From Spirochaetia bacterium (GTDB lineage: Bacteria; Spirochaetota; Spirochaetia; SZUA-6; Bin103), in contig OZ241863.1 of assembly GCA_965203055.1 (NCBI GenBank), positions 3,296,001 through 3,360,000 on the forward strand: a DNA stretch of 64,000 nucleotides, given 5' to 3'. This document shows, one piece after another, positions 1-57,739 of this stretch. A model generated the notes under the pieces. That model searched no databases and was not told the DNA's origin. It saw only the letters and a list, made by a program, of their open reading frames with translations. Both the position numbers and the translations under genes were made by a program. Every line of letters begins with the position of its first letter. The first letter of the stretch is position 1.

Positions 1-304
1 CAAAGTGAGCAGCGAAGTCGGCCCCCTTCTGAAGCTGCACCGACACGTGGGATACCTCGGCCCTGCCGCTCTTGAGCTCCAGCGGAACCGTGACCACGTG
101 ACGTTCGTCAGCAGCCGGATAGAAGACAACGAAATCACATCTGCTCCCTTCCCATCGATGAGCGGGAAACGCCAAGTCCGCGTCAACGATGATCCGTTGA
201 TCCGGAAGACCGGTGTCGTCGACGCCGCACTCATCCCGGCTCAACGACTGACTGATATTGCGTTCGCCTACCGCCGACCGGATTCCATCGAGAACCTCAT
301 TCAT
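1..304 (-). CDS. Putative PD-(D/E)xK-like nuclease, partner of the upstream ABC ATPase (3' end outside window)
   Basis: Not in the ORF track. Manual translation from ATG 304: MNEVLDGIRSAVGERN...SRCDFVVFYP...VPLELKSGRAEVSHVSVQLQKGADFAAHF, open to the window edge. ATGA overlap with the ATPase stop. CDF...ELK...QL pattern. Confidence 0.6.
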   Translation of the reverse strand, partial: MNEVLDGIRSAVGERNISQSLSRDECGVDDTGLPDQRIIVDADLAFPAHRWEGSRCDFVVFYPAADERHVVTVPLELKSGRAEVSHVSVQLQKGADFAAHF

Positions 305-2603: not shown

Positions 2604-2675
2604 GAATCCTCACATGTTTGCACAAGTATACCAGCATCCGGTGCAGGAACACGCGGGTAATGTCCGAAATACCCA

Positions 2676-5180: not shown

Positions 5181-5183
5181 GCG

Positions 5184-6185: not shown

Positions 6186-6215
6186 GGGGCGTCGCGGACC
6201 ATCGCACGGGCGGGT

Positions 6216-9158: not shown

Positions 9159-9234
9159 CTACGGATGATCCTTCTCGGTCTCGGCCGACAGGCTGCGCAC
9201 CGCCGGCACCGGCGCGCGCGGTTCGATCGCGGTG

Positions 9235-9312
9235 TTACACATCGATCGCATCTCCCTGTTGGTGTCGATGGCCAAGTCTACCGGTCTCCCCACAAGTCTT
9301 CCAGATACTCCC
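9235..9312 (-). pseudogene. C-terminal remnant of an MNT-family nucleotidyltransferase
   Basis: Reads EYLEDL / VGRPVDL / DAIDV* across frameshifts, matching the usual MNT C-terminus. Confidence 0.45.
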
Positions 9313-9384
9313 GGGTGGGCGGCGGGGCGCCGCGCGCCCATGCAAAAGCGCCGCCGACGCCGCGCCGTTGTAGGGGGCAGAGAA

Positions 9385-10338
9385 ATGGCATCGACCCTGC
9401 ATCAGCCCCACGATCACCTGTTCCGCCTGGTGTTCGCCGACCCCGAGGAGACCTCCGCCTTCCTCCGCGCCCGGCTGCCGGACTCGTACCAGGGCGGCAT
9501 CCTCTGGTCCTCCCTGCGCCGCGCCGCAGGCTCCTTCGTCGACCAGGAGCTGCGCGGCTCCGTCACCGACCTGCTGTTCGAAGTGCGTAGCGCCGCCGCG
9601 GCGCCGCGGCAGTGGCTCTACCTGCTGTTCGAACATCAGTCCCAGCCCGACCGCTGGATCACGCTGCGCCTGCTGCGCTACTGCTGCCGCATCTGGGAGA
9701 ACGACCGCCGAGACCACCCCGACGAGCAGTACCTGCGCCCGGTGCTGCCGCTGGTGTTCTACCAGGGCGAGCACCACTGGCGCTACGCCATCGAACTGGC
9801 GGAGTCGTTCCCGCCGGCGCTGCGCGGCCAGCCGTGGGTACCCCACTTCTCCCCGCTGCTGCTGGACCAGACCCGGATGGCGCCGGCGGCGGTGGCCGGG
9901 GAACTGCACGGGCGGTTGCTGCAACTGGCGATGATGCACACCTTCGAGCAGGAGCTGGGGGAGGCGCGGAAGCGAATCGCGCCGCTGATAGGGGAGTTGA
10001 AGTGGAAGCCGACGCATGGCGGGGTGGATTACTACCAAGCGTTCCTGAAGTATATTGTGAAGACCGGGCCGGCGGACACGCTGGAAGCGCTGGGTGAGCT
10101 GCTGCGACGCTTGGCGCCGGAACTGAGAGGTGATCTGATGACCTGTGGCGAGATACTGCGCCGGGAAGGTGAATTGAAGGGCCGACAGGAAGGCCGGCTG
10201 GAGACCATCGACGGGCTCCTGCGGGCCGGGATCGGGTGGCCGGTGATCCAATCCGCGACCGGTATCGACGAGCCCACCTACCGCGCCCTCAAACGCGACG
10301 CCGCCAACGGCACGGAGCAGACCGCCCCCCGCCAATAA
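9385..10338 (+). CDS. Rpn/YhgA-like PD-(D/E)xK nuclease (recombination-promoting nuclease/putative transposase)
   Basis: HDHLFRLVF, SFVDQELR..TDLLFEV, YLLFEHQSQPD, PLVFYQG, and C-terminal EGRQEG repeats. ATG 9385 preferred over the 9232 ORF start. Confidence 0.92.
   Translation: MASTLHQPHDHLFRLVFADPEETSAFLRARLPDSYQGGILWSSLRRAAGSFVDQELRGSVTDLLFEVRSAAAAPRQWLYLLFEHQSQPDRWITLRLLRYCCRIWENDRRDHPDEQYLRPVLPLVFYQGEHHWRYAIELAESFPPALRGQPWVPHFSPLLLDQTRMAPAAVAGELHGRLLQLAMMHTFEQELGEARKRIAPLIGELKWKPTHGGVDYYQAFLKYIVKTGPADTLEALGELLRRLAPELRGDLMTCGEILRREGELKGRQEGRLETIDGLLRAGIGWPVIQSATGIDEPTYRALKRDAANGTEQTAPRQ
10138..10338 (+). CDS. Putative intragenic small protein (RpnS-like antitoxin), in frame with Rpn
   Basis: Strong SD GAGAGGTGA immediately precedes an internal in-frame ATG (10138) at the start of the variable C-terminal domain: MTCGEILRREGELKGRQEG... 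Confidence 0.55.
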   Translation: MTCGEILRREGELKGRQEGRLETIDGLLRAGIGWPVIQSATGIDEPTYRALKRDAANGTEQTAPRQ

Positions 10339-10885
10339 TCCGCGCCCCGCGATAGTCCCGCCGGGCCGGGCGCGTCCATCACGGCCAGCGCGCCGCGCCG
10401 CCCAAAAACGCCGCCGACACCGCGCCGTTGTAGGGTCAGAGAATGTGGCATCGCCCCCTGCATCAGCCCTACGATCACCTGTTCCGCTTGGTGTTCGCCG
10501 ACCCCGAGGAGACCGCCGCCTTCCTCCGCGCCCGCCTGCCGGACTCGTACCAGCGCGGCTTCCTCTGGTCCTCCCTGCGCTGAACTGGCGGAGTCGTTCC
10601 CCCCGGCGTTGCGCAGCCAGCCCTGGGTGCCGCGCTTCTCCCCGCTGCTGCTGGACCAGACCCGGATGGCGCCGGCGGCGGTGGCCGGGGAGCTGCACGG
10701 GCGGTTGCTGCAACTGGCGATGATGCACACCTTCGAGCAGGAGCTGGGGGAGGCGCGGGAGCGGATCGCGCCGCTGATGTGGGAGTTGCAGGGAGAGCCG
10801 GTGCGCGGCGGCGTGGACTACTACCAAGCGTTCCTGAAGTATATTGTGAAGACCGGGCCGGCGGACACGCTGGAAGCGCTGGGTG

Positions 10886-12574
10886 CAGGAAAATCCCATG
10901 CTACAGAGGCTGGTGGGAGCCGCGCCGACGCGGAGGCCGCAGTGGCCAGCGACAATCAAGATGAGAACCTAGCGGCTGCCTCCGGCGGAGGGGAATGGGA
11001 CAGCGGGTGGCGCACCTGAGGGCTTGGTCCGACCGTAGTCGCACAGTTGACCCAGACGGCGACCGGATGGGAGCGCGGGGCGGGCCGGGAGTGGTTCGAG
11101 GAGTGGGGGCGGAGCGCTCGAAGCGGGCTGCGCCAGCCTCAGCCGGGCGCCATGAGGGCCTTGATGGCTACCTTCGGGCGCCCGGTAAAGTAGCGTAGTG
11201 CCGACGCCAAGTTGGTCCACCGGCGGTAGCGCAGGATCAGTGCCAGCACCAGGTTGTTGCACACCGCGCGGTTGGCAGGCGCCGCGTGGCGCCGCGCCAG
11301 GCAGGCATCCTCAGCCAAGGTGCGGTCACGGCGATGGTGGTTCTTCGACTCGATCGCCCAGTGGCCGCGGTTCCAGGCCAGCAGTTGCTCCGCAGAGGCT
11401 TCGGAGGCCGGCACCGAAGTGATGCCGTAGGCGTAAGTAACGGTCTTCTCGCCGCTCTTGAGCACGTGGCGGTCGCGGCGCACCCGGAACACCTGCGCGA
11501 CGTGCGGGTAGTTGAGGGTGTTGGGCGGCAAGGTCATAACTTCGATGTGGCGCCGTTCGATGCGGCCATGGGCCTTCTCGGACGCTGTGGAGAAGCGCGC
11601 GGTAGCGTGTTCCCAGGGGATGCTGACGAGTGCCTCGTAGGTCTCGGAGGAGTTCTGCTTGACGGTCATCTGATAGTGGGCCTGGTGCTGTTCGACGATC
11701 TTGGTGGCGGTGTCGCGGGTGGTGTGGAGGGCATCGAGGGTGATCACCGCGCCGCCGATCGAGACCGTCTCGAGCAGGGCGCCGACGGCGGCCAACTCGC
11801 CATTCTCGTCGTGGAAGTTGAGACTGGCGAGCGGCACGCCGGTGCCGTGCTCGACCAGGGTGGCGGTCTCGTAGCGTAGCGAGCCGTGGCGATTGGCGCC
11901 GCGAATGCGCTTGCCGTCGGCCGCGATGGCGCGGCGTTGGCGCGGAGCTGGCGGTGGCAGGCGGGACTCGGAATAGCGCTGCAGGATGGCTTCGAGGTGC
12001 TCGGTATCGGCGTGCATGAGCACCCGGTGGATGGTGGACTTGGGGGGCGGATGGTAGCGCCCGGAGCGCCGATTGCGCCACGCGCCAATATCTTTGAGGT
12101 CCTTCTGCGTGAGCCTCTGAGCATACTCCGCCGCCGCGACCGGGCCGCGAAAGTTGCCCAGCGCAGCCAACAGGTAGACCGTCAGCACGGTCGCAATGGA
12201 GTGCTTGCGCCCCTGGCCGCGGCGGTAGTCGGGGAGGTCTTCGAGTTCGGCGTACAGACTGCGCTTGTCGACTGCGGCGTTATCGTCTGGGTGTTCGGGC
12301 CGTGCCCGCCAGCAGTCTGGCAGCTTGCCGGACTGGCTGAGGATGCGCCGGGCATCGCGCCGCAAGGGGCGCACGAAGAGACGCTTCGGGTGGCCGTGAG
12401 GGTCGGTGTAGTGGCCGTTGCTGCGCGCGTAGCCCTTGCTGTCGCCGACGTAGGTCCAGTTGCCGGCCTGATACAGGGTGCCGGAGAAGCGCTGCGGATC
12501 GACGAAGCTCTCCGCAACCAGCAGCGGATGGCCGTAGTGCTGCTGCCAATCGGAGCTAGCATGGGATCGCCTTG
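10886..12574 (-). mobile_element. ISAs1-family insertion sequence (apparently internally deleted)
   Basis: Imperfect 18-bp terminal IRs CAGGAAAATCCCATGCTA / CAAGGCGATCCCATGCTA (14/18). 9-bp TSD CGCTGGGTG at 10877-10885 and 12575-12583. Confidence 0.88.
11139..12556 (-). pseudogene. ISAs1 transposase with a partial DUF4338-like N-terminal domain, 5'-truncated
   Basis: ISAs1 motifs LPDYRRGQGRKH, IAADGKRIRG, ITLDALHT, EKAHGRIERR and RGHWAIE. The DUF4338-like segment DWQQHYGHPLLVAESFVDP starts right after the IR. Confidence 0.8.
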
Positions 12575-12939
12575 CGCTGGGTGAGCTGCTGCGGCGCTTG
12601 GCGCCGGAACTGAGAGGTGATCTGATGACCTGTGGCGAGATACTGCGCCGGGAAGGCGAGTTGAAGGGTCGGCAGGAAGGCCGGCTGGAGGGCCGGCTGA
12701 GGGCCGCCTGGAAGGGCGCCAGGAAGGTGAGTTGAAGGGCCGGCGTGAAGGCCGGCTGGAGACCATTGACGGGCTCCTGCGGGCCGGGATCAAGTGGCCG
12801 GTGATTCAATCCGCCACCGGCATCGACGAGCCCACCTACCGCGCCCTCAAACGCGACGCCGCCAACGGCACGGAGCAGACCGCGCCCCGCCAATAATCCC
12901 GGCGCAACGACGGCCACTGCGCGCGCGGTTCGATTGCGG

Positions 12940-13107
12940 CGTTACCCATCGCACCAGCACGTCGACGTCGCTCTCGGCCGCAGCCTGATCGCGGGCGAAG
13001 GAGCCGAACAGAGCAACGCCGGAGACGCCGAACCGCTCCTTGAGCGTCGCCTTGCTCGCGCGGAGCAACTCCAGAACCTGGTCTCGGTTCGTGGTGCCCT
13101 GCCTCAT
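12940..13107 (-). pseudogene. N-terminal part of an MNT-family nucleotidyltransferase
   Basis: NRDQVLELLRASKATLKERFGVSGVALFGSFARDQAAAESDVDVLV contains the GS..R and DxD motifs. The C-terminal half is missing. Confidence 0.75.
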
Positions 13108-13133
13108 CGTCGCCAACAATCCGAACCATCCTG

Positions 13134-13718
13134 CTACCGTATCAGTTCCTCTACCGTACGCCACATCTTGTCGAATGACGGTGCCCCTCGCCTCGCCTGA
13201 TCAAGATCGAACAAGGAACTGAACGCCGGTTGGTCACGAGTCTCTTGGTATGCTCGTCCGGCCGCCATGCGGCCGGCAAGCCATCCCTTCGCATTGCGGG
13301 TCGATTCCGGGTTGGCTGGCGCTGTCGTGTCGCTGCCTAGGTCCCGGTGCCCGGCCAACGAATCGGCGGCGGCCAGAAACCACGCCTCGTATTCTCTACA
13401 TGCCAGCACGACCCCAATGCGGCGATCGTTTCGAGCGGTCGTAGCGCGCCGGAGAATCTCCGGCGCCTTGTCGCAAGGAAGGTCGTCGTCGGCGTCGAGC
13501 ACTATCAGTATACCGCCGTTGGGACCGGATTGACGCGCGGCGAGATCGACGTACCGCTCCAGTACGTTCTCCTTGAGCAGGAGGTCGCGGTTCACCCTGA
13601 TCGGTTTCGGCACCCGCGGTACGGTGCCGGGAACGATGGCGTCAGCAATGCGGCGGATCAGGATCGGCACTGCCTGCACTTCTCCAACTCCCTCGACGAT
13701 CGCGATGATCACGGGCAT
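13134..13718 (-). CDS. DUF4276 family protein (TOPRIM-like)
   Basis: IVEGVGE, ILIVLDADDD, REYEAWFLA, SFDKM. Lies directly downstream of an ABC ATPase. Confidence 0.85.
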   Translation of the reverse strand: MPVIIAIVEGVGEVQAVPILIRRIADAIVPGTVPRVPKPIRVNRDLLLKENVLERYVDLAARQSGPNGGILIVLDADDDLPCDKAPEILRRATTARNDRRIGVVLACREYEAWFLAAADSLAGHRDLGSDTTAPANPESTRNAKGWLAGRMAAGRAYQETRDQPAFSSLFDLDQARRGAPSFDKMWRTVEELIR

Positions 13719-13721
13719 CGG

Positions 13722-14945
13722 TCAGTGCGTGGTGTCGGTCTGGAACAGGTCGAGGCGAAGCTGGGATGACTGGTCCGGGTCAGGGCGCAACTGATCGATC
13801 CGCAGCAGCTCGCCGGCGCGGAAGAGGTGATCGCGGAGCGACGAACGGCCCGCTTCGTCCAGGGGGCCAATTCTAGTTTCGGCATGCTCGGAGAGTACGG
13901 CGAGGATCGAGGTGTCGGGGATGGTGTCGTGGTCGAGCAGGTCGGCGCTGTGGCTGCTGACGATGACCTGCGCCGCTCGGCTGGCCTCGGTCAGACTGTC
14001 CATGAGCACGCTGGCGGCGGCCGGGTGCAGGGCGCTCTCCGGCTCTTCGATGCCGATCAGGGTTGCCCGCTCCCCGTTGCCGCTCGTCCCCTGGAACAGC
14101 GCGACGAGCACCCCGAGCGCGCGCAGCGTGCCGTCGGACATGTTGCTGGCCAGGAACCGCCACGGATGGTGAGCTCCGCGCACGTCCTGACGAAAGTCCA
14201 GGGTGAGTTTCGTCCCCATCGTGCGAGGCTCAACGCCCGTGACGCCGGGCGTGATGGCGGCCAGATATTCCTCGACCGCCGTCTTGCCGCGCCCTCCGAG
14301 GTTTGCGAGGACGCTCGCCAAGTTGCCTCCATCTCGCTTCAGCAGATCTCCAGGGTCGGGCGCCTGGAGATCGCGGATCGCTTCGGGGTTCAGATTGTAG
14401 AACCCCATCTCAGACAATGCATCGTAGACTGGCCGGAACGTGGTGAATCCCGACATGGCGACCAGATAGAGACGATCTCTTGCGCACGCCGGCGGATTGG
14501 GAATCGTGCTGTCAACTACTGTGCCGTCCTCGACCTTGTAACGGTCGTAGCCGGATGCGCCGGCGATGAAGCATTCCTCCTCTTGCACGCTGTAGCCACC
14601 GCGAGGTTGCGCGCCCACCCGGAACGCGTACCAGCCTTCGGCGCGGGGAAGCCGCAGGTCGAGCCGGATGCCGAAGTGGTTCGGGTGGCCGCCGGAACGT
14701 CTGCGCACTTCCTGAATGCCGCCCCGGTCGCGCAGCGCGTGGTCCAGTGAGAAGCGCAGCGCCTCGGCCACGAAGCGCAACGCATCCAGGAAGTTGCTCT
14801 TGCCGCTCCCGTTCGGGCCGACCAGGAAGGAGAGCGGCGCCGGCCGCACGTCGCACGCGGCAATGCTCTTGTAGTTCCGCAGGCGCACGCGGGTCACCAG
14901 CCGGGAGTCGGTGTCTCCAACGTGGCTCACGGGGAAATCAGCCAT
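13722..14945 (-). CDS. ABC/SMC-like AAA_21 ATPase
   Basis: LRNYKSI, GPNGSGKSN, signature MSDGTLR, IGIEEPESALHP, SSHS. Confidence 0.92.
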   Translation of the reverse strand: MADFPVSHVGDTDSRLVTRVRLRNYKSIAACDVRPAPLSFLVGPNGSGKSNFLDALRFVAEALRFSLDHALRDRGGIQEVRRRSGGHPNHFGIRLDLRLPRAEGWYAFRVGAQPRGGYSVQEEECFIAGASGYDRYKVEDGTVVDSTIPNPPACARDRLYLVAMSGFTTFRPVYDALSEMGFYNLNPEAIRDLQAPDPGDLLKRDGGNLASVLANLGGRGKTAVEEYLAAITPGVTGVEPRTMGTKLTLDFRQDVRGAHHPWRFLASNMSDGTLRALGVLVALFQGTSGNGERATLIGIEEPESALHPAAASVLMDSLTEASRAAQVIVSSHSADLLDHDTIPDTSILAVLSEHAETRIGPLDEAGRSSLRDHLFRAGELLRIDQLRPDPDQSSQLRLDLFQTDTTH

Positions 14946-16875
14946 CCAGTACCGCCTGTGGGGCCTCGTCCCGACGATCGCGGTTCCCGCCAGGGCCAGC
15001 CGGTGCGACCAGACCCATTTCCGTAAGAAACTGCGAGGGCGGTTTGCGGTATCCGTAATACTTACGGGCTCTGGTCAACGTGAGGGTATCGCTGGCGCGG
15101 GTGACCGCCACGAAACAGTTCCTGCGCTCCTCCTCGACCTCCTTGCTGAACATTCCCCGGCGCAGCGCCTGGAACGACGGCAGCACTTCCTGCGCCAAGC
15201 CGATCAGATAGACGTGCTTGAACTCCAGGCCCTTCGCGCGGTGCACGGTCATGCAGCGCACGGCATCCTTACCGGGCCGCGGTTCCTTCGACGCCAGATC
15301 GAGTTGCGGAAGATAGTCGTGCAGCGTGATGCCGCTGCCGTGCTCGCCCATGATCTCGTGGTGAAGCGTGCGCCACGTATCGACTTCCTCTTTGGTAACC
15401 GCGCCGTCGCCGTTGCCGCACCACTCCTTCCACCCCTGGTCGAGGAACGCTTCGATCACCGCCGGAAACGCAAGCGAATCGACCAGCTCAGAGCGAATCA
15501 CGCGCAGCGCGCCGGCGGCTCGCTGGTCGGCAACCGCCCCCGCAGCGTCGGCCCACGAACGCAGAAAGTCGCCGCCGACCAGCGCCGCCGCGGCCGCCAC
15601 CGTTTCCGGCTCCAGCGCGGTTCCGCTCAGCGCTTCCCATGCCAGGCACAGCCGGCGCAGGATCGTCCGGTCGTGGCGCGCGTTGGCCAGCCGCAGGGCA
15701 TGCAGGATCGTGCCTACCGCGGGAGACTCGAACTCCCTGGTCCTCTGCGGCAGGTGCGCGTCATAGCCGGCGCTGCGCAACGCGGCGGCGGCGCGCTCGA
15801 TGAGCTTCACCGTACGCCCGATGACGACGCATTCGGCGGCAAGCAACTCCCGCTCCGCCATGTCTTGCGCCACGAACGCGGTCTCTTGCTCAGGTGATTC
15901 GAATACCTTGCACCGCACCACGTCGCTGCGCTGCGCGCCGCCCGATTGAGCGCTGATCGGCTTCTTGCCGGAATCCCGCTCCATGTTATGCGCGATCAAC
16001 CGGTTCGCGAGCTCGACGATCGGCTGCGGGCAGCGGTAGCATTCCGGCAACTGCACGATCTTCGGCTGATATTCCCGGCGCAGCCGCCGGAGCCGTTCCG
16101 GGCTGGCGCCGTTCCACTGGAAGATGATCTGATCGTCGTCGGCGACCACGAACAGATTGCGCGGCGCCGGCGCAATGAGGCGCAGCAGTTCGTACTGCGC
16201 GTTGTTCGTGTCCTCAAACTCGTCGATGCAGACGTGCGACCAAGCGAGGCGCAGCCCGCGCGCAACGCCGGCCTGCTCCACGAGGAGCCGGCGGGCGAAG
16301 TGCAGCAGACTGCCGTAGTCCAGCCGGTTGGCGGCGACCAGAGAGTCGCAGTAACCCCGGTACAGACGCGGCAGCCAGGCGGGGGTATCTAGCAGGAACG
16401 GCGCCTGCCGGCCGCCGTCGTACGATTTGGCGAACAGCCGATCGATCAGGTGCACGAGGTTCTTTCGGTCGGCGGGCGGCGATTCCTCCTCCTCCGGCTC
16501 CTCCGGCAGTTGCGCGATCGTCTCCTCCAACACCGCGATGCGGTCCTCGTCCTGCACCAGCAGGCTGAAGTCGGGCCGCAGCCCCACGTGGCTGCCGTGT
16601 TGGCGCAGGAGATCGGCGGCGAACGCATGGATGGTGCACAGGCGCGCGCGGTCCGTCCGCCCGCCGAGCAGCGCATCGAGGCGCTCCCGCATCTCCGCAG
16701 CCGCCTTGTTGGTGAAGGTAAGCGCCAGCACCGAGGCGTGTTCGTCCGCTTCGATCACCCGCGCCACGCGCTGCGTCAGCACCGTAGTCTTGCCCGAACC
16801 CGGCCCCGCCAGCACCAGCAGCGGCCCGTCGTCCCAGCCCACGGCGGTCCGCTGGTTTTCGTTCAAGGTCTTCAC
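14938..16875 (-). CDS. UvrD/Rep-like SF1 helicase
   Basis: LNENQ, AGPGSGKT, LTFTNKAA, DEFEDTN, DDDQIIF, MTVHRAKGLEF, FVAVTRA. Probable GTG start at 16875 overlaps the res stop (GTGA). Confidence 0.9.
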   Translation of the reverse strand: MKTLNENQRTAVGWDDGPLLVLAGPGSGKTTVLTQRVARVIEADEHASVLALTFTNKAAAEMRERLDALLGGRTDRARLCTIHAFAADLLRQHGSHVGLRPDFSLLVQDEDRIAVLEETIAQLPEEPEEEESPPADRKNLVHLIDRLFAKSYDGGRQAPFLLDTPAWLPRLYRGYCDSLVAANRLDYGSLLHFARRLLVEQAGVARGLRLAWSHVCIDEFEDTNNAQYELLRLIAPAPRNLFVVADDDQIIFQWNGASPERLRRLRREYQPKIVQLPECYRCPQPIVELANRLIAHNMERDSGKKPISAQSGGAQRSDVVRCKVFESPEQETAFVAQDMAERELLAAECVVIGRTVKLIERAAAALRSAGYDAHLPQRTREFESPAVGTILHALRLANARHDRTILRRLCLAWEALSGTALEPETVAAAAALVGGDFLRSWADAAGAVADQRAAGALRVIRSELVDSLAFPAVIEAFLDQGWKEWCGNGDGAVTKEEVDTWRTLHHEIMGEHGSGITLHDYLPQLDLASKEPRPGKDAVRCMTVHRAKGLEFKHVYLIGLAQEVLPSFQALRRGMFSKEVEEERRNCFVAVTRASDTLTLTRARKYYGYRKPPSQFLTEMGLVAPAGPGGNRDRRDEAPQAVLDG

Positions 16876-19800
16876 TTGGCCGGCGGCGGCTCGCTGATTG
16901 CGGCGTCGAAGTCTTCCTGCAGGGTGTAGACGTCGGTGAGCTCGGCGAAGTCCCAGCGGCCGCAGGAGCGCAGTCCGTTCACTCCCGGCACCCAACAGGT
17001 CTTCATGGTCGCCTTCTTTTCCTTGGCGTCCTCGCGCCGGTAGCCCTTGATCTCGACCACCAGGTGGAGCGGGTCGTCCTCGCCGCGGCCGTCGTCCACC
17101 AGCACGATGAAGTCAGGGAGATAGGTGCGCGCCTCGGCGCCGCAGCGATAGGGCACTTCCAGGCCCAGGCCGTGGTTCTTGACGTAGGCGCGGACCCGCG
17201 GGTGCGATTCGACGAAGCGGCAGAACTCCGCCTCCCAGTCGCTGTCGCACACCACCCAGTTCACGTGGCAGCGGCGCGGATCGGTCTGCCAGCGGGTCTG
17301 CCTGGAGGTGGTGAAGTTGACGTGGATCGTCGAACCGGCCGGGTTGTACGGATCGAGCACGGCCGTGACGGGGCGCTCGCCGACGTGGCGCGCCACGATG
17401 CCGCGCGTGATGCGCAGGCAGGCGCGGTCCGCCAGTTCCCGGTAGATCAACTGGGCGGGGAAGGTGCCGCCCTTGCAGATCAGGTGATCGTGCAGCCACT
17501 GCCGCGTGATGCGCTTGAGCTGGCCGAACAGATGCAGCTTCGGCTCCTCGCCGGGATCGCGCCAATGTTGTTCCAGCAGCGTCTTGGTGAGATGGTACGT
17601 CACCGTCGACGGGCGCATCGCCTTGAGATGGTCCAGGCTGAGATCGACCCCCTCGCCGATGATCCCCTCGTTGCGGGTGATGGACGGTCCCACCAGCTCC
17701 GGCGTGAGCACCAGCGTCGAGTCTTCGGTGAACGCCGCGGCGACGTGCTCGTCCGGCAGTTCCACGCGGTAGCCCCGCACGTGCGGAAAGCGGAGCTCGC
17801 AGCCGTCCCGGTCCGGCGTGATCGCCCTGACGGTTACGGTGGCGCGCGCCTTCTGCGGTCTGGCGACCACCGGCTCGGCGGTGAAGTCGAACGGGATGCC
17901 GAGCACGTCGGCGTACTCGACGTCGAACCGCCCCTCCTCGTTCAGCTCGTAGGACTGCCGGCGCAGAGCGCGCCCGACCACCTGCTCGCACAGAAGCTGG
18001 GTGCCGAACGCGCGCACGCCCAGGACGTGGGTGACGGTGCGCGCGTCCCAACCCTCGGTGAGCATGGCGACCGAGACCACGCAGCGGGTCTCGCCCCCCA
18101 GCCGGCCCGCCATGCCGACCGTGTTCATCACCTCGCGCAGCAGGTCCTGGTCGGAGAGCGCCTCCGCCTGGCGGCGGTCGCCGGTGCGCTCGACGATCTC
18201 GCGCCGGAAGCGCGCGATCTCGTCGCCCGCGGCGGCCCGGAAGTCGGCGCCGAGCGCCTCCCCGGAATCGAGCTGCTCGCTGTCGATCAGCAGGGTGCGC
18301 GGCCGGGCGAGCTGATTGCCGTACTCGTCGAAGTTGCGGAACAGCGCCAGGCGCCCGTTCTCCAGCGTGGTGGAGCCGTCTTCGTTGCGGCGCTCGAAGC
18401 CGGCGATGTAGTCGTACACCAGCTTCGAGGTCGCGGTGTTGTTGCAGACCACGATGAAGCAGGGCGGCGCCTCGATGCCCGCCTCCCGCCACTGCTCGAA
18501 GGTCGCGGCGTAGTGACCGTAGAGCGCTTCGAGCGCGGTCTGCAGCTCCACGGGGATGTTCAAGGGATCGAGGCCGCCGGCCTTGCCGCGGCCCTTGCGC
18601 GGCATGCGCCGGCCGACGTGCGCCCACAGGTTGCGGAACTTGGGCACGTCGGCGCCGGGGATGTTGTCGGCCACCGGCACGCGCGGCAGCTTGACGATGC
18701 CGCACTCGATCGCGTCCATCAGCGAGAAGTCGCTCATCGTCCACGGGAACAGCGTCCCCTCGGCGTAGCCGGAACCGCGCAGGAAGAACGGCGTGGCCGA
18801 CAGGTCGATGACGCGGCTCAGGCCGAGCTTGCGCTGCACCGCCTCCAGGCCGGAGATCCAGACCCGCGCCGCTTCCTGGTTCTTCTCCGCCTCCCGCCGG
18901 TCCTCCCCCTTGAGGTCGCCTTCCTCGCTCTCCTCCCGGGGGCGCTCGCGGTAGCAGTGGTGCGCCTCGTCGTTGAACGCCAGCACCCGCTTCATGCCCA
19001 TGAGGTCGGGCATGACCCGCTGCAGCATCTGCCCCTCGGTCTCCTGCGTGCGCAGCTTCGGGCCGCGGCCCTGCAGCAGGGAGCGCCCGCCGCGCGAGAG
19101 CTCCTGCGTCTCGCGGCGCATGAAGGCGTGGTAGTTGGTGATGACGATCTTGGCCCGGTGCAGGTCGCCGAGCAGATCGCGCGGCACCAGCTCGCGGCTG
19201 CGGTAGTAGCTGTCCGGGTCGTTGGGCTGCAGCACGCGCAGCCGGTCGCGGATGGTCAGCCCCGGCGTGACCACCAGGAAGCCGCGCGTGAACCGGCGGC
19301 TGCCGGGATGGCGCACCGCGTTGATCGTCTGCCAGGCGATCAGCATGGCCATGACGGTCGTCTTGCCGGCGCCGGTGGCGAGCTTGAGCGCCAACCGGGC
19401 GAGGATCGGGTTGGCTTGCTCGTTCACCGTCTCCAGGTGGTCGAGGAACTGCCGTCCGCGCGCCCCGGCCGGCGCGGCCTCGGTCAGCCAGATCACCGTC
19501 TCCGCGGCTTCCACCTGACAGAAGAACGGCCGCAGGCCGCTGAACCGGTGATGCCGCCAGTGGTCCAGCAGGCGCGCGGTCTCGGGCGTGACCCGCCAGC
19601 GGGCGCGCGGCAGCCGCCGCCACTCGTCCACGGCGCGGCGCACGCTGTCGATGAGCGCCGACAGGTCGTATTGCTGGCCGTCGGCCTCCAACCCGGCCGC
19701 CGCGGTGTCGAACACGATCTCCCGCTGCCGGCCGCGCTGCTTGCGGACCGGCGGAATCGGCGTGATGAACGAGACGCGGCGGCGGCGGTCGGCGATGCGG

Positions 19801-19895
19801 TTGGTGGGCTGGCGGTTCTCGTCCAGCTCCCAGTGCCGTCCCGGATACTCGTACGGCGAGTTCAGGACCGGCCGCCGAAAGAACTCATCCATCAT
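16872..19895 (-). CDS. res: Type III restriction enzyme Res subunit
   Basis: LATGAGKT, DEAHH, SATP, MLTEGWD, EQVVGRALRR, and C-terminal nuclease motif PDFIV...VEIKG. Start could be 19892, 19895 or 19913. Confidence 0.92.
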   Translation of the reverse strand: MMDEFFRRPVLNSPYEYPGRHWELDENRQPTNRIADRRRRVSFITPIPPVRKQRGRQREIVFDTAAAGLEADGQQYDLSALIDSVRRAVDEWRRLPRARWRVTPETARLLDHWRHHRFSGLRPFFCQVEAAETVIWLTEAAPAGARGRQFLDHLETVNEQANPILARLALKLATGAGKTTVMAMLIAWQTINAVRHPGSRRFTRGFLVVTPGLTIRDRLRVLQPNDPDSYYRSRELVPRDLLGDLHRAKIVITNYHAFMRRETQELSRGGRSLLQGRGPKLRTQETEGQMLQRVMPDLMGMKRVLAFNDEAHHCYRERPREESEEGDLKGEDRREAEKNQEAARVWISGLEAVQRKLGLSRVIDLSATPFFLRGSGYAEGTLFPWTMSDFSLMDAIECGIVKLPRVPVADNIPGADVPKFRNLWAHVGRRMPRKGRGKAGGLDPLNIPVELQTALEALYGHYAATFEQWREAGIEAPPCFIVVCNNTATSKLVYDYIAGFERRNEDGSTTLENGRLALFRNFDEYGNQLARPRTLLIDSEQLDSGEALGADFRAAAGDEIARFRREIVERTGDRRQAEALSDQDLLREVMNTVGMAGRLGGETRCVVSVAMLTEGWDARTVTHVLGVRAFGTQLLCEQVVGRALRRQSYELNEEGRFDVEYADVLGIPFDFTAEPVVARPQKARATVTVRAITPDRDGCELRFPHVRGYRVELPDEHVAAAFTEDSTLVLTPELVGPSITRNEGIIGEGVDLSLDHLKAMRPSTVTYHLTKTLLEQHWRDPGEEPKLHLFGQLKRITRQWLHDHLICKGGTFPAQLIYRELADRACLRITRGIVARHVGERPVTAVLDPYNPAGSTIHVNFTTSRQTRWQTDPRRCHVNWVVCDSDWEAEFCRFVESHPRVRAYVKNHGLGLEVPYRCGAEARTYLPDFIVLVDDGRGEDDPLHLVVEIKGYRREDAKEKKATMKTCWVPGVNGLRSCGRWDFAELTDVYTLQEDFDAAISEPPPAK

Positions 19896-19921
19896 CGGAA
19901 TGCTCACGCCCATCTACCGCT

Positions 19922-27793: not shown

Positions 27794-28861
27794 CTACGGC
27801 GCCTGCGCCCGGGGGCTGAGGGCAGGCACGCCGAGGCGGCCGGCGAGATCGTCGAGCTGGGACACCGTTCCCTGGTCGAGCGGCACCCCGCCGCGGCTCC
27901 GGGCCTCGAGGGTGCGCAGCTCCGGTTCGCCGGGCAGGAGGATTTCATCGACCCCCGGCTTGCGGGCCGACGACTTGAGCAATGCGATGTACTCCTCGTG
28001 CAGCTCCTCCATCGCGGCGCGCCCGACCAGGGCGTCGGGGTCGGCCGCCCACAGGGTGAAGTTGTTGGAGAACTCGCCGCTGCCGCGGGCGCCGCCGGCG
28101 CGCCCGCCGGCCAGCATGGCGCCGACCAGATCGACGATCACCGACATGCCGTACCCCTTGTAGCCCATGTCGCCGCCCAGGGGCAGCATGGAGCCGCCGT
28201 CGTACAGGTCCTCGGGGCGGGTGGAGGGGCGGCCCTCGCGGTCGAGGATCTGGCCGGGGGGCAGTTCCTTGCCGGCGAAGCGCGCTACCCGCACCTTGCC
28301 CTCGGCCGTGACGCTGGTAGTGCAGTCGAGCACGATCGGGCCGCCGTAGGTGGGCACCGCGACGGCGATGGGATTGGTGGACAGCAGCGGCGTGGTGCCG
28401 CCCCAGGGGGCCACGATGCCGGCGCCGCGGCCGCTGCAGAACACCTGCCCCACCAGTCCCGCGGCCGCCATCCTCCGGGCGTAGAACCCGGCCCTGCCGA
28501 TGTGGTTGGCATTGCGCACGCCGACCACCGCGACGCCGCCGGCGCGCGCCTTGAAGGTCGCCAAGCCGGTGGCCTCCAGTCCGGCCACCTGGCCGAACAC
28601 TCCCGGCGCGTCGAGCAGCGCCGTGGTCGGGGTGTCGCGCACCTTGCGCGGCGTTGCCTTGGGGTCGATGCTCCCCTGCTCGATGGCGCCCACGTACTGC
28701 AGCAGGCGATGCACGCCGTGGGAATCGTGGCCCAGGAGGTTGGAGTCGGCCAAGTGGTCGGCTACCGCACTGCCGTGGCTCGGCGGCGCTCCCGCGGCTG
28801 CCAGCACCGCGAGGGCGAACTCATGCAGAGTGTCATAGGTAAATCGCACTTCTTCAGCCAT
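27794..28861 (-). CDS. Ldh_2 family (malate/L-lactate/sulfolactate-type) oxidoreductase
   Basis: GHDSHGV, NHIGRAG, STNPIA, GYKGYG, LPGEPE. Confidence 0.9.
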   Translation of the reverse strand: MAEEVRFTYDTLHEFALAVLAAAGAPPSHGSAVADHLADSNLLGHDSHGVHRLLQYVGAIEQGSIDPKATPRKVRDTPTTALLDAPGVFGQVAGLEATGLATFKARAGGVAVVGVRNANHIGRAGFYARRMAAAGLVGQVFCSGRGAGIVAPWGGTTPLLSTNPIAVAVPTYGGPIVLDCTTSVTAEGKVRVARFAGKELPPGQILDREGRPSTRPEDLYDGGSMLPLGGDMGYKGYGMSVIVDLVGAMLAGGRAGGARGSGEFSNNFTLWAADPDALVGRAAMEELHEEYIALLKSSARKPGVDEILLPGEPELRTLEARSRGGVPLDQGTVSQLDDLAGRLGVPALSPRAQAP

Positions 28862-29136
28862 ATCAGATGTTCCAGCCCGGATGATAGCACGAATGCCGCC
28901 TGTGGGGCGCGGGCCGGCCGCCGGGGGGCGCACTTCCAATTTGTTGGTACCGGTCCCGCCCTCGAAGCCGCCGGAAAGGCGTAACGAGATCGACGAGGCC
29001 GCCTGGGGCCGTAAGAAGAAACCCTGCCGCCCGACGCCGGCGACATTCTCGGCGGTAGCATCTGACGGAACGTCCAGCCGCTTGGAAATGCGCCGCCGAG
29101 TCACGCCAGCAAGTGGCATCTTCCGGGCCGAAGAAC

Positions 29137-29165
29137 TTGACTCAAGTAGTTTCCATGATTATACT
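29137..29165 (+). promoter_or_regulatory. Sigma70-type promoter of the HNH gene (probably leaderless)
   Basis: TTGACT - 17 bp - TATACT, with ATG 29172 only 6 nt after the -10 box. Confidence 0.7.
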
Positions 29166-29171
29166 TATGTC

Positions 29172-30529
29172 ATGTACAATCATGCTTCCGACGAGGCCGT
29201 CACCACTACCGTATCCGCCCTCTCAGACGACCGCCTGCTGGCGCGGACCAAGGAACTTTCCGGCATCGAACACCATCTCGAAGTGGTCGTGATCGACCAC
29301 CTGCGGGAGATTCAGAAGCGCCGCCTGTATCTGCGCCGCGGGTTCTCGAGTCTGTTCGATTACGCGGTACGCGAGCTGGGTTACAGCGACGCCGCGGCGT
29401 GGCGGCGCATCAAGGCGATGCGGCTCTGCGCGGACGTCGATGGCGTGCGGGAGCGCCTGCAGAATGGCACGATGACGCTGAACGCGGCCGCGCAGTTGCA
29501 GAACGCCTTCGACCGGCAGGAGCGCAAGAAGGAACGGGCGGCGCGTAGCGCGCCGGGCGGGACCGGGTTCGGGGCTGCCGCTCAGTCGCAGGAGGGCTCG
29601 GCGCCGCCGCGGCCGGCGGAGCGGAAGCCGGCGCCGACGCCGGTGCTGGACCCGGAGGCGCGGCGGGAGCTGGTGGAGCAGGCGTCCGGCAAGAGCAGCC
29701 GGGAGGTGATGCAGTTGCTGGCCGAGGTGGACCCCGAACTGGCGGCGCCGGCGGAGCGGGTGCGGCCGCTGGGCGGCGGTCGCTGGGAGCTCAAGGCGGT
29801 GATCGACGATGAGTGCCGGCGCGGCTTGGAGCGGCTCAAGGGCCTCCTGTCGCACGTCGATCCGCACCTGACGTTGGGCAGCTCATGGGGCGGCTGGTGC
29901 GGGAAGGGCTCGACCGCCACGATCCGGCCCGGCCGCCGCGCGGGCGGCGCGCCGCGCCAGCCAAAGGCGCCGAGCAAACTTCGGCGCCGAAGACGCAGGC
30001 GGCCTCGGCTCGCGGCGCTGCCCCGGCAGCGAAGCAGGAGGCCGGCGCGGACAACGCCGCTCCTTCGGCGGCGAAGGTATCGGCTCAGGCGGCGGCGCAG
30101 CCGGGAGACGAAGCCGCTGACCGCTCGGACACTTCGGCAGCGAAGACGGCGACCGACACCACTTCGGCGGCGAAGACGCGGCGCCTCGGCCGGCAGGCTG
30201 CGGCGTGCGCGCAGCCGGCTGCGCCGCCGCGGACCCGGACTTCGGCAGCGAAGCCGGGCGGCGTGACCGGCCGCGCCATCCCGGCGGCGGTCAAGCGCGA
30301 GGTCTGGCGGCGCGACCGCGGCCGCTGCCGCTACGTGGACCGCACCAGCGGGCGCCGCTACGGCTCGCAACACCTGCTGCAGATCGATCACGTCGTGCCG
30401 TATGCCTGCGGCGGCGCCGCCGAGCCGAACAATCTCCGCCTGCTGTGCGCCGCCCATCACCGCTACCGCCACCTCGGCGCCGGATTCGGCCGCCCCGGCG
30501 AGGATCGGCAGGCGCCGGTAGACCGGTGA
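29172..30529 (+). CDS. HNH endonuclease with a helical N-terminal domain; 1-nt frameshift at about 29875
   Basis: N-terminus LSDDRLL...HLREIQKRRLYLRRGFSSLFDYAVRELGYSDAAAWRRI. After the frameshift: IPAAVKREVWRRDRGRC...LQIDHVVP...NNLRLLCAAHH. Confidence 0.82.
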
Positions 30530-30686
30530 TTCAAGATCGCCGAGAAACGTCATTTACACTGGGACTGAGCTTGGCCGCCAAGTGGCATGACCTACAACAC
30601 TTACCTACATTTTGGAATGCGCCCGCCGCCGGGCACCCGGCGGGGAGGGCTTGAGCCGGGCGGCGGTACGGTGTTTCATTCCTCAC

Positions 30687-32645
30687 GTGACTGATGCAGG
30701 CAGCGTACGGCAGCGGGCGGGCGCCGCGTTCGACTCGTGGGAGGCGATTGCGGCCGACGACGCGGCCATACGGGATGCTCTGAGGCACGCCAACGTCCCC
30801 GCGCTGCTGGCGGCGTTGGCCCATCTCACCGGCGACCTCGGGCTGCTCCGAGGGGAGGTTCGACCGCGCGTGGTCTGGGGCGACGCGCAGATGGGGCTCA
30901 GCCGGGCGCAGCAGGAGCAGGTGCGGACCCGCGCCCTGGAAATCATCGCCGCCTACCGCGACGGCGGGTTGCGCCCGGCGCCGCCGCCGACCCGCGAACA
31001 GGTGCATGAGATGGCCAGTTTCCTCGTCGGCCGGTCGCTCGGGGAGGACTACGTCGAGTTCCTGGTGACCGAACTCGGGCTGGCCGGCCACGACCCGGGC
31101 GCCGCCGGCTTCCTCCGCGAGGTGCCGGCGGAGCGGCGCACCGGCTTCCACGTGGCGGTGATCGGCGCCGGTATGTCGGGAATCCTGGCGGCGCATCGCC
31201 TGCAGCAGGCGGGCATCCCCTATACCGTGCTCGAGAAGAACGCCGACGTGGGCGGCACCTGGCTGGAGAACACCTACCCCGGCTGCCGCGTCGACACCCC
31301 CAATCACTCCTATTCCTACTCGTTCGCACCCAAGGATTGGCCGCAGTTCTTTTCCTCCCAGCCGGTACTGCTGGAGTACTTTCGAGAGTGCGCCGCCCGG
31401 TTCGGCATTCGCGACCGGATCCGCTTCGCCACCGAAGTCGAGCGCCTCGCGTTCGACGAGCGGAGCCAGACCTGGACGCTCCATACCCGGAGCGCCGGCG
31501 GGGAGCTGCGCCCGCCGCTCCGCGCCAACGCCGTGATCAGCGCCGTCGGCCAACTCAATCGCCCGCGGCTGCCGCAGATCGCCGGCCGGGATACGTTTCG
31601 CGGCGCCGCGTTTCATACCGCGCGCTGGAATCAGGCGGTTGATCTGACCGGCAAGCGGGTCGCGGTAATCGGTACCGGCGCGTCGGCCTTTCAGGCGGTG
31701 CCGGCAATCGCCTCCTCGGTCGCGGAGCTGTTTCTGTTTCAACGTACGCCGCCGTGGGTCAATCCGCGCCCCGACTACCACCAGGAGGTGCCCGCCGGCA
31801 AGCACTGGCTGCTGCGCTGCGTCCCCCACTACGCGCAGTGGTTTCGGCTGCTGCAGTTCTGGCTCACCGCCGAGGGCGCGCTGGCGTACGTGTACCGGGA
31901 CGAGCAGTGGGACGAAGCGGGCAGCATCGGCGCCGCCAACCGCAAGCTGCGCCGCCTGCTGGTCAGGCATGCCAAGGAGTCACTGGGAGATGATCCGGAA
32001 CTACTTGAAAAATGCATCCCGGCCTATCCGCCGGCGGGGAAGCGGATGTTGTACGACGATGGCACCTGGTTCCGCACGCTGAAACGCGCCAACGTTCACC
32101 TGATCACCGAGCCAATTGGCCGCCTCACCGAGACCGGCGTGGTCACCGCCGCGGACCGGCGCTACCCCGTCGACGTGGTGATCTACGCCACCGGCTTTCG
32201 CACCACCGAAATGCTGTGGCCGATGACCGTCACCGGGCGCGGCGGGGCGCGCCTGCAGGAAACCTGGCGGGGAGACCCGCGCGCCTACCGCGGCATCACC
32301 GTCCCGCGCTTCCCCAACCTGTTCTGCATGTACGGGCCGAATACCAACGTGGTGGTGAACGCCAGCATCATCGTGTTTTCGGAGTGCGAGATTCACTACG
32401 TCATGAGCTGCCTCAAGCTGCTGCTGGAGTCAGGACGGCGCAGCATGGAGTGCCGGCAGGAGGTGCACGACGCCTACAACCGGTGGATCGACGCCGGCAA
32501 CGGCCGCACCGCCTGGGGAGCGCCGCAGGTGCGCAGTTGGTACAAGAACGATAGCGGTCGGGTGACCCAGAACTGGCCGTTCAGCGTGCTGGAGTTCTGG
32601 CAGCAGACGCGCGCCGCCGACCCCGCCGACTACCACTGGCGTTGA
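30687..32645 (+). CDS. Baeyer-Villiger monooxygenase (HAPMO-like FAD/NADPH monooxygenase)
   Basis: GAGMSG, GGTWLENTYPGCRVD, FHTARW (FxGxxxHxxxW), GTGASA, with a HAPMO-type N-terminal extension. Confidence 0.9.
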   Translation: MTDAGSVRQRAGAAFDSWEAIAADDAAIRDALRHANVPALLAALAHLTGDLGLLRGEVRPRVVWGDAQMGLSRAQQEQVRTRALEIIAAYRDGGLRPAPPPTREQVHEMASFLVGRSLGEDYVEFLVTELGLAGHDPGAAGFLREVPAERRTGFHVAVIGAGMSGILAAHRLQQAGIPYTVLEKNADVGGTWLENTYPGCRVDTPNHSYSYSFAPKDWPQFFSSQPVLLEYFRECAARFGIRDRIRFATEVERLAFDERSQTWTLHTRSAGGELRPPLRANAVISAVGQLNRPRLPQIAGRDTFRGAAFHTARWNQAVDLTGKRVAVIGTGASAFQAVPAIASSVAELFLFQRTPPWVNPRPDYHQEVPAGKHWLLRCVPHYAQWFRLLQFWLTAEGALAYVYRDEQWDEAGSIGAANRKLRRLLVRHAKESLGDDPELLEKCIPAYPPAGKRMLYDDGTWFRTLKRANVHLITEPIGRLTETGVVTAADRRYPVDVVIYATGFRTTEMLWPMTVTGRGGARLQETWRGDPRAYRGITVPRFPNLFCMYGPNTNVVVNASIIVFSECEIHYVMSCLKLLLESGRRSMECRQEVHDAYNRWIDAGNGRTAWGAPQVRSWYKNDSGRVTQNWPFSVLEFWQQTRAADPADYHWR

Positions 32646-56042: not shown

Positions 56043-56096
56043 GGATGGCGAGGTGGCCCTCTTCCGGGTCACCGAGCGGCTCACGGCCGGCTCAAC

Positions 56097-57619: not shown

Positions 57620-57739
57620 CGGCTCAACCCTGTTGTTGACATCCTGTTGCCGTAGTATGTTCGTTTCCAATGCTCGGTGGCGGCCCCTAGCCCCCAAGCC
57701 GCCCGGCTCGATGCCGACCTGGCAGGAGGGGATGCCCCG

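Follow-up and report, generated by a model that had tools for sequence, protein, structure and literature searches.

How did a gene for an HNH endonuclease come to lie between the ends of an insertion sequence (IS), with no transposase gene beside it? The question is raised by a segment of ~1.7 kb (28926-30624) in the window analysed here, a stretch of 64,000 nucleotides from a Spirochaetia bacterium. Our preferred answer, to which we give a probability of about 70%, is that the segment descends from an ISKra4-family IS and is now a cassette without a transposase, i.e. a mobile insertion cassette (MIC) or non-autonomous IS, which has a selfish HNH gene as its passenger and was moved in trans.

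Ends and target duplications of the cassette and of the intact IS

A perfect 9-bp target site duplication (TSD), GCCGCCGGG, lies directly outside both repeats of the cassette, at 28917-28925 and 30625-30633 (no strand assigned), as read directly from the sequence. The left inverted repeat (IR; GGGCGCACTTCCAATTTGTTGGTA, 28926-28949, plus strand) agrees at 23 of 24 positions with the left repeat of an autonomous IS in the same window, and the right repeat (30602-30624, minus strand) is 23 nt long and differs from the right end of that IS by one substitution and one deleted base. We searched the window with the 24-mer GGGCGCACTTCCAATTTGTAGGTA, allowing up to three mismatches, and it matched only at 28926 (one mismatch), 56097 (none) and 57619 on the minus strand (three); 100 shuffles gave no match. 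The near-identity of the two pairs of ends that a sequence-only reading had reported is thus found again.

The autonomous element is an ISKra4-family IS at 56097-57619 (plus strand; 56088-57628 with its TSD). It is bounded by a perfect 9-bp TSD, CGGCTCAAC (56088-56096 and 57620-57628), and by left and right 24-nt IRs (56097-56120 and 57596-57619) that are complementary at 21 of 24 positions. Its transposase of 467 aa (56189-57592, plus strand) scores 216.8 bits on the ISKra4 family transposase model NF033572, against a cutoff of 205, over model positions 28-421 of 422, and also matches PF06782. The cassette and the IS are independent insertions, since each has its own IRs and its own perfect 9-bp TSD. 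Together the shared IRs, the TSD and the NF033572 transposase bear out the view of the sequence-only reading that the cassette is a non-autonomous derivative of an ISKra4-type IS, carrying an HNH gene.

The copies of this IS have no HNH gene. On the window's contig only one further transposase cluster, P0123, was found among the matches listed, and it is internally deleted. The right repeat of the cassette is nearer to the right ends in two related loci, L001 and L006, than to the right end of the window IS, and the true transposase partner of the cassette may be a sister IS rather than the window IS. In the cassette the HNH unit ends in a 3' tail (to ~30555), followed by a subterminal stretch like the transposase 3' end (together 30530-30601, plus strand); the similarity covers ~20-35 nt internal to the right repeat.

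The methyltransferase relic and cassette copies at other sites

Adjoining the left repeat is a decayed relic of the 3' end of a gene for an MmeI-like type IIL RM enzyme or DNA methyltransferase (28950-29070, plus strand), placed by its DNA homology to L002, a locus in a related genome. The homology covers 3658-3723 of L002 and resumes from 3811 on, the cassette relic being ~87 bp shorter than that in L002. The identity of the relic comes from tblastn against plasmids and from comparison with one annotated methyltransferase only: the L002 stretch has matches among annotated DNA methyltransferase and MmeI genes (E 1e-7 to 1e-4) and aligns with a methyltransferase fragment at positions 97-124 (E 2.5e-8), while the relic in another copy, the protein P0390, aligns with the fragment at positions 56-76 (E 0.002). 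The window relic itself is too decayed for a direct match (best E 0.19), and Pfam and NCBIfam gave no meaningful match for the DNA that separates the HNH gene from the left repeat. The relic has an internal deletion that differs from copy to copy. A relic at the left repeat with copy-specific deletions fits the descent of all copies from a single ancestral cassette, and the presence of a chromosomal methyltransferase relic points to a captured stretch of chromosome, not to a purpose-built module.

The identical junction between left repeat and relic occurs beside three different outside flanks, namely in the window, in L002 and in P0390. Homology between the window and L002 sets in precisely at the outer edge of the left repeat (window 28925, L002 3658), and the flanks outside it differ. 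P0390 has 10 unrelated N-terminal residues, then GRTSNLLV, which is the translated left repeat, and then the same interior. The same left junction at three flanks argues that the cassette moved repeatedly and is not a one-off capture. L001 retains the right repeat and the same subterminal sequence. Since L001 and L002 keep one repeat each, complete transposition from IR to IR with a TSD is seen for the window copy only. P0087 is uninformative as to the left repeat, because this protein begins only downstream of the junction. The 13 related loci, with flanks of up to 4 kb, contain no transposase.

The cassette probably originated when chromosomal DNA became enclosed by a left and a right IS end. 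The captured stretch would have comprised ~110 codons from the 3' end of an MmeI-like methyltransferase gene and the HNH unit just downstream of it. As the TSDs and the junctions suggest, an ISKra4 transposase supplied in trans, e.g. the one encoded at 56189-57592, would recognise the 24-nt ends and insert the cassette, making the 9-bp duplication. The passenger is more than ordinary cargo, being a member of a large family of selfish HNH genes, each with its own promoter and a presumably leaderless ORF. In the predicted protein a helical domain (possibly DUF222-like) forms the N-terminus and an HNH domain the C-terminus, with a disordered linker in front of the latter. On this reading the cassette is one selfish gene riding another, and its window copy is already dead.

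The HNH gene, its family and the proposed partnership

The leader of the HNH unit (29071-29136, plus strand), in which homology to L001 begins at 29071, is followed by a sigma-70-type promoter, TTGACT-17-TATACT (29137-29165, plus strand). The promoter scan found it as the only promoter-like site within 28700-30800, where 0.1 would be expected. The ATG of the HNH gene (29172) lies 6 nt beyond the -10 hexamer, from which we infer that the mRNA is leaderless; the promoter and the 6-nt spacing are kept in all 11 sequences compared. The first part of the gene (29172-29879, plus strand, frame 0) encodes the N-terminal helical and middle domains, and the second (29879-30529, plus strand, frame 2, with the stop codon at 30527-30529) encodes the disordered linker and the C-terminal HNH domain, which matches PF01844 with 25.4 bits against a cutoff of 21.4. 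No transposase gene was found in the cassette by ORF and domain search, and it contains a promoter and an HNH gene, as had been read from the sequence before, besides the methyltransferase relic.

The two parts are separated by a 1-nt deletion at 29879 (GGCCAG to GGCAG), which shifts the frame. In addition, a zinc-ligand Cys has become Tyr in the window copy (RRYGSQH); this position is Cys in all 88 close paralogues that have the motif and in 30 of 37 diverse relatives. Judged from the frameshift and the loss of the zinc ligand, the window copy is a pseudogene.

The predicted structure of the HNH protein is confident over residues 13-126 and 161-249. When the AlphaFold model was compared with PDB structures, no fold matched at E<=0.001, the hits being weak HNH-domain matches and a low-probability ParB match only, and comparison of the protein with the sequences of solved structures gave nothing below E 0.07. 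Neither the transposase nor the HNH protein, intact or as its N-terminal part, found a match by tblastn in the plasmid collection.

The HNH family is a large selfish gene family, which multiplies also without IS ends. With a limit of E<=1e-3 it comprises 16,698 cluster representatives, and with E<=1e-30 it comprises 872; the window protein has 1888 homologues. The window's contig of 4,557,819 bp has at least 16 clusters of HNH paralogues, among 120 clusters listed; these 120 relatives are all at least 86% identical to the N-terminal part of the window protein. A C-terminal HNH domain occurs in 30 of 37 relatives. As counted by protein clusters from the cluster tables, the cassette-type HNH subfamily may be much more numerous than the transposase, and this would be in keeping with an active partnership. 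The flanks of homologous units were checked for IRs: in 11 of 13 related loci no ISKra4-type repeat adjoins the HNH unit and the flanks are mutually unrelated, and around the units of L003-L009 no flanking direct or inverted repeat scored above shuffles. The family can therefore spread without the IS ends, contrary to the dependence on them that the sequence-only reading had considered.

Among three cassette-type HNH copies dN/dS is 0.25-0.43, which shows that the nuclease has stayed under selection after capture. Inert cargo would be expected to drift, yet these values and the retention of the HNH motif in 88 of 119 close paralogues count against a reading of the gene as passive cargo. In the sister subfamily L003-L009, which has the same copy number and no IS ends, dN/dS is 0.16-0.51, so selection on the nuclease does not need the transposase.

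The coding region also contains conserved palindromes. A palindrome scan gave 15 matches against 0.88 expected, including five exact CTTCGGCNNCGAAG in the linker of the cassette gene (29979-30253, plus strand), each coding for T-S-A-A/P-K, and the leader contains a further palindrome, CTTCCGGGCCGAAG, at 29120-29133. Within the related loci the motif occurs solely inside HNH linkers. Codon choice at the CTTCGGCNNCGAAG palindromes is fixed, which indicates conservation at the nucleotide level. We rejected the idea that three 5'-truncated HNH fragments all begin exactly at a palindrome, since comparison puts their starts merely inside the palindrome-bearing linker. One may ask whether the family is an uncharacterised mobile gene with a nuclease that acts on the CTTCGGCNNCGAAG palindromes in its own leader and linker and, in the cassette lineage, cooperates with the ISKra4 transposase, the transposase integrating and the nuclease driving copying or retention. 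We consider this rather unlikely; if true, such cooperation between a palindrome-acting nuclease and a transposase would account for the purifying selection on the cassette copies and for their excess over the transposase.

Also improbable, and somewhat more so, is a dedicated partnership in which the HNH nuclease promotes the spread or retention of the cassette, perhaps by cutting empty or excision sites so that repair recopies it, with integration left to the transposase. It would fit the dN/dS values among cassette-type copies after capture, the intact motif in most close paralogues, the shared left-repeat junction at three sites, and the at least 16 HNH clusters on the window's contig versus one intact and one deleted transposase. 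Against it, L003-L009 reach the same copy number and a similar dN/dS range without IS ends, the IS copies have no HNH gene, and the cassette includes a chromosomal gene relic. In addition, IS256-type relatives transpose by copy-out-paste-in and leave the donor intact, which would make a retention nuclease unnecessary.

The absence of a guide-RNA family and of a RuvC/IscB architecture argues against a partnership of this kind as well. Scanning 28500-31000 with Rfam at E<=1 found no RNA family. The IscB model reaches 23.1 bits on the HNH protein against a cutoff of 175, over the HNH part only. These results speak against an RNA-guided role similar to that of TnpB or IscB. What stands of the suggested association of nuclease and transposase is that an HNH gene lies between IS ends, moved repeatedly with them and was under selection; its dedicated character is not supported, given the spread of the family without these ends, the chromosomal relic and the pseudogene in the window.

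Possible self-insertion and the relation to known elements

The HNH unit could instead have moved by a mechanism of its own into an existing MITE or IS copy, replacing or splitting its interior, with no capture from the chromosome by IS ends. HNH units do occur at unrelated sites without such ends, and the left boundary in L001 lies ~66 nt upstream of the promoter, matching the units that have no IS ends. Moreover, an IR-like 13-mer, TTGGAAATGCGCC, in the HNH leader (29082-29094, right-end orientation, 1 mismatch of 12) makes 28926-29094 look like a small IR-bounded element. However, this 13-mer corresponds to the outer half of the IS repeat only and may belong to the methyltransferase tail (E 0.19, a weak match), and what separates the left repeat from the HNH leader is methyltransferase relic, not IS interior. 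We regard self-insertion as quite doubtful. For the same reasons 28926-29094 was rejected as a separate MITE: its inner 'repeat' fits the outer 13 nt only and its interior is the relic. That the ends are debris of unrelated IS, and that the segment as a whole never moved, is scarcely credible, since a right end degenerate by one deletion and one substitution is set against a perfect 9-bp duplication exactly outside both repeats, as long as that of the intact IS, no chance matches in the shuffles and the same junction at other sites.

A transposase-less cassette moved in trans is a known kind of hitch-hiking cassette, and its passenger is unusual. MIC231/IS231 is an example of a mobile insertion cassette. 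MICs are described in PMC3129680 as IS-related objects without a transposase that can be activated by a cognate transposase. The segment has the ends of an autonomous IS, a passenger gene, a TSD, no transposase and copies at different sites. Like MICs and other non-autonomous IS (MITEs, transporter IS), it combines IRs and a TSD with a passenger, lacks a transposase and has a cognate intact IS in the genome. It differs from MICs in its parent, an ISKra4-family (Mutator-like) IS, and in its passenger, a multi-copy selfish nuclease gene together with a chromosomal gene relic; its trans-mobilisation is deduced from sequence.

The protein resembles the DUF222-HNH proteins and REP13E12 of mycobacteria, which are also multi-copy and have N-terminal helical and C-terminal HNH domains. 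The host lineage differs, and the window protein does not match DUF222 (PF02720). Four of 37 relatives do so at 15.9-21.2 bits, below the cutoff of 24.4, over the N-terminal ~100 residues, and in one neighbouring Atlas cluster 21% of the proteins have DUF222. We know of no means by which REP13E12 and DUF222-HNH elements spread, and to our knowledge a palindrome-bearing linker has not been described for REP13E12. The two are named together as repetitive elements in PMC10589994. TnpB and IscB share with the cassette a nuclease gene in a transposon-like element, the nuclease not being the integrase. In contrast to them the cassette HNH protein has no RuvC domain, no accompanying RNA family and an IscB score of 23 bits against 175; the IS family is another one, and the HNH family is also found outside IS ends.

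In the cassette two selfish elements are stacked: a multi-copy HNH gene has been packaged between the ends of a bacterial IS of the Mutator-like type and has moved with them to several sites. The arrangement offers a concrete system in which one can test whether a non-autonomous transposon fares differently when its passenger is a nuclease. Attention is also due to the HNH family itself, which is very large, with thousands of cluster representatives, and has conserved DNA palindromes in its coding region. For annotation the finding explains the repeated 'HNH endonuclease' genes and pseudogenes in these genomes.

Four ISKra4-group elements have extra genes (Guerillot et al. 2014, PMC3942029). 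The window IS shares with that group its transposase family and near-perfect IRs (21 of 24); the cases published there retain their transposase, in contrast to the cassette, which lost its own. Part of the group is also described there as inserting ~16 bp upstream of sigma-A -35 boxes, in either orientation (PMC3942029). Consistent with this, a TTGACA at 57636-57641 begins 16 nt past the right repeat of the IS, with a 14-nt spacer to a -10-like hexamer, although the scan called no promoter there. In the left flank of the cassette, TGCTATCAT (28881-28889, minus strand) places a -35 position 16 nt from the left repeat, with a non-consensus hexamer. The promoter scan called no promoters in the flanks of the cassette and of the IS, and the argument for promoter targeting is weak for this reason. 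The site of the cassette is the intergenic region between Ldh and BVMO.

HNH gene between insertion sequence ends

The HNH gene lies in a cassette (28926-30624) that starts with GGGCGCACTTCCAATTTGTTGGTA, ends with TACCTACATTTTGGAATGCGCCC and is bracketed by a perfect 9-bp target-site duplication (TSD), GCCGCCGGG, at 28917-28925 and 30625-30633. The intact ISKra4-family insertion sequence (IS) at 56097-57619, with first bases GGGCGCACTTCCAATTTGTAGGTA and last bases TACCTACGTTTTGGAAGTGCGCCC, has a TSD of the same length, CGGCTCAAC, on both flanks (56088-56096 and 57620-57628). The IS-like ends and separate duplications claimed by the sequence-only reading were thus borne out to the base by direct reading. 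The 24-mer repeat has no further occurrence in the 64 kb with up to three mismatches, and none was found in 100 shuffles; the fourth end, with one deleted base, was recovered by an error-tolerant search. The IS encodes an ISKra4-family transposase of 467 aa (56189-57592; NF033572, 216.8 bits against a cutoff of 205), also matched by Pfam UPF0236, and ORF and domain searches within the cassette found no transposase, as had been claimed.

Homology between the window and L002, a related HNH locus, starts precisely at the outermost base of the left repeat, beyond which the flanks are different. In the protein P0390, from another contig, 10 unrelated residues are followed by GRTSNLLV, the translated left repeat, and then by the same interior, so that one left-repeat junction stands beside three different flanks. 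The related locus L001 keeps the right repeat and subterminal sequence; its left part is rearranged, with homology from ~66 nt upstream of the promoter. The right end is absent from L002. Full transposition from inverted repeat (IR) to IR with a TSD is thus demonstrated only for the window copy. The HNH unit of L001 is bracketed by an imperfect direct duplication of ~65 nt of flank (3831-3895 and 5384-5447; score 77, where shuffles reached at most 36), a length well beyond that of a DDE-type TSD.

Judged from the sequence, the proposal of an HNH gene enclosed by IS ends and, by inference, moved in trans is well supported by the ends, the TSD, the absence of a transposase and the repeated junction. 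The intact transposase of the cognate type is 27 kb away, and an ISKra4 transposase would move the cassette in trans. The cassette is of an established type, known as a mobile insertion cassette or non-autonomous IS (PMC3129680).

The transposase may also place the cassette near promoters. According to PMC3942029, some elements of the ISKra4 group insert, if their IRs are nearly perfect, at a distance of 16 bp upstream of -35 boxes and in both orientations. TTGACA begins 16 nt past the right repeat of the IS, and on the minus strand the extended -10 element TGCTATCAT puts a -35 position 16 nt from the left repeat of the cassette; the promoter scan called no promoter at either place. The empty site reconstructed by removing the cassette and one TSD copy (28910-28925 joined to 30634-30650), CCGCCGGGCACCCGGCGG, consists of an 8-bp inverted repeat with CA at its centre, and the divergent Ldh_2 and flavin monooxygenase genes lie on either side of it. 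The ORF 57677-58291, shortly downstream of the IS, contains tandem repeats (57929-58223) of ~108-bp period and 91-98% identity. The 4,557,819-bp contig of the window holds a second transposase copy, P0123, with a core internal deletion of ~90 residues, which is presumably inactive.

Cassette structure and origin

The left repeat (28926-28949) is followed by a decayed gene relic (28950 to ~29070), a leader (29071-29136) and the promoter TTGACT-17-TATACT (29137-29165), the sole promoter-like site that the scan called in 28700-30800, where 0.1 is expected. The HNH ORF starts with the ATG at 29172, 6 bases past the -10 hexamer, and stops at 30527-30529; then come a short tail, ~20-35 nt resembling the 3' end of the transposase gene, and the right repeat (30602-30624). 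The sequence-only reading gave the segment a promoter and an HNH gene only. Both were found, but a methyltransferase relic is present too and the ORF is broken by a frameshift at 29879 (GGCCAG to GGCAG), where P0002, an intact natural paralogue of 442 aa, has the sequence LTLGQLMGRLV. The window copy also has Tyr at an HNH zinc-site position that is Cys in all 88 close paralogues keeping the motif and in 30 of 37 diverse relatives.

From these 37 relatives an AlphaFold model was obtained (mean pLDDT 76.8), in which a helical N-terminal domain (13-126), a second domain (161-249) and the HNH domain (360-428) are confidently predicted and a linker at about residues 250-355 is predicted to be disordered. 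The model matched no solved structure at E<=0.001. Pfam assigns HNH to 30 of the 37, and DUF222 below threshold to four, over the first ~100 residues. The family seems distantly related to the DUF222-HNH (REP13E12-type) proteins, all DUF222 matches being sub-threshold.

L002 has the left repeat and interior of the window cassette with ~87 extra bases within the relic, and its relic translation matches DNA methyltransferase and type IIL restriction-modification enzyme MmeI genes in a plasmid collection (E 1e-7 to 1e-4). On a fragment of 170 residues from near the C-terminal end of one such gene (P0391, from locus L014), the relics match at 97-124 (L002), 67-104 (P0087, another copy) and 56-76 (P0390). 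It is one common relic with different internal deletions in different copies; the shortest, that of the window, can be identified only by DNA homology with L002. These matches put part of an ordinary chromosomal gene inside the cassette, which argues that the IS ends came to flank a chromosomal stretch where the HNH unit already stood behind a methyltransferase gene. An IR-like 13-mer, TTGGAAATGCGCC, lies inside the cassette in right-end orientation (29082-29094) and recurs in L001, L002, P0048, P0087 and P0390; it could be an older IS end remnant or a chance likeness within the methyltransferase tail.

HNH family and the question of a partnership

The N-terminal part of the HNH protein matches 1888 proteins at E<=1e-3, the best 120 of which show at least 86% identity. 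Cluster representatives, searched exhaustively, gave 16,698, 7,088 and 872 matches at E<=1e-3, 1e-10 and 1e-30. The genome scan gave 13 HNH loci, nine in OZ241907.1 (MAG: Spirochaetia bacterium), three in OZ251573.1 and one weak HNH-only match. When the flanks of these homologues were checked for the same IRs, an ISKra4-type repeat was found adjoining the HNH gene in L001 and L002 and in none of the other 11. L006 has a solo ISKra4-type right end (151-174, minus strand, GAGCGCATTTCCAAAATGTAGGTA) unrelated to its HNH unit, 3.8 kb away, and the parent element runs off the locus end.

The DNA common to L003-L009 begins no more than ~60 nt before the promoter and ends at about the stop codon (window 29134-30519, 84-86% identity), with ragged boundaries and unrelated flanks, and no flanking direct or inverted repeat scored above shuffles there. 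Every copy shown keeps the promoter and its distance of 6 nt from the ATG, including the two most distant, L012 and L007 (45% and 56% protein identity). For the N-terminal domain dN/dS is 0.16-0.51 across all 36 pairs and 0.25, 0.25 and 0.43 for the three cassette-type copies. The ORF is uninterrupted through HNH in five of the nine OZ241907.1 loci, frameshifted in three and 5'-truncated in one. The passenger of the cassette is a member of a selfish gene family. In L012 the broken HNH unit adjoins a homologue of the 980-aa N6_N4 DNA methylase of the window.

An undescribed partnership of transposon and nuclease had been suggested as a possibility from the sequence alone; one in which the nuclease helps the cassette spread now seems improbable. 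Purifying selection on the nuclease did persist after capture, and members of the cassette-type subfamily seem more numerous than the transposase on the contig of the window (at least 16 HNH clusters, including the window's own, against one other transposase cluster, P0123). However, the family spreads without ISKra4-type ends, the cassette contains chromosomal debris, and the IS copies lack the HNH gene. Nor was any IscB- or TnpB-like architecture or RNA found.

Linker palindromes and other mobile features

The palindrome CTTCGGCNNCGAAG has five exact copies in the window HNH linker (29979-30253) and one, with a single mismatch, shortly before the -35 hexamer (29120-29133); the search gave 15 hits against 0.88 expected. 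Exact copies in L001-L011 are confined to HNH linkers, several per copy, including relatives at 56-60% identity. The motif codes T-S-A-A/P-K with fixed codons: Thr is ACT in 20/20 (6/115 elsewhere in these genes), Ser is TCG in 23/23 (58/201 elsewhere) and the fourth codon is GCG or CCG in 23/23 (GCG elsewhere 228/537), so the constraint is on the nucleic acid, along with or in place of the peptide. The three 5'-truncated HNH fragments (L005 4036-4236, L008 4005-4197 and L010 4013-4419) all start inside this linker. The pattern suggests that the palindromes are candidate cis-acting sites. Two of the three fragments sit 130-190 nt upstream of a full-length HNH copy.

Elsewhere in the window, a defence- or mobile-type gene cluster (1824-19913) encodes DUF5131, an S8 peptidase adjoining an AAA ATPase, the 980-aa N6_N4 DNA methylase, DUF4276 adjoining an AAA_21 ATPase, and a ResIII helicase-like protein. 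The segment 9232-12917 has one gene of the YhgA-like Transposase_31 type and one of the DDE_Tnp_1 type amid internal repeats (9793-10096 and 10582-10885 at 93%; 10158-10341 and 12716-12899 at 93%), an arrangement that looks like nested or duplicated mobile elements.
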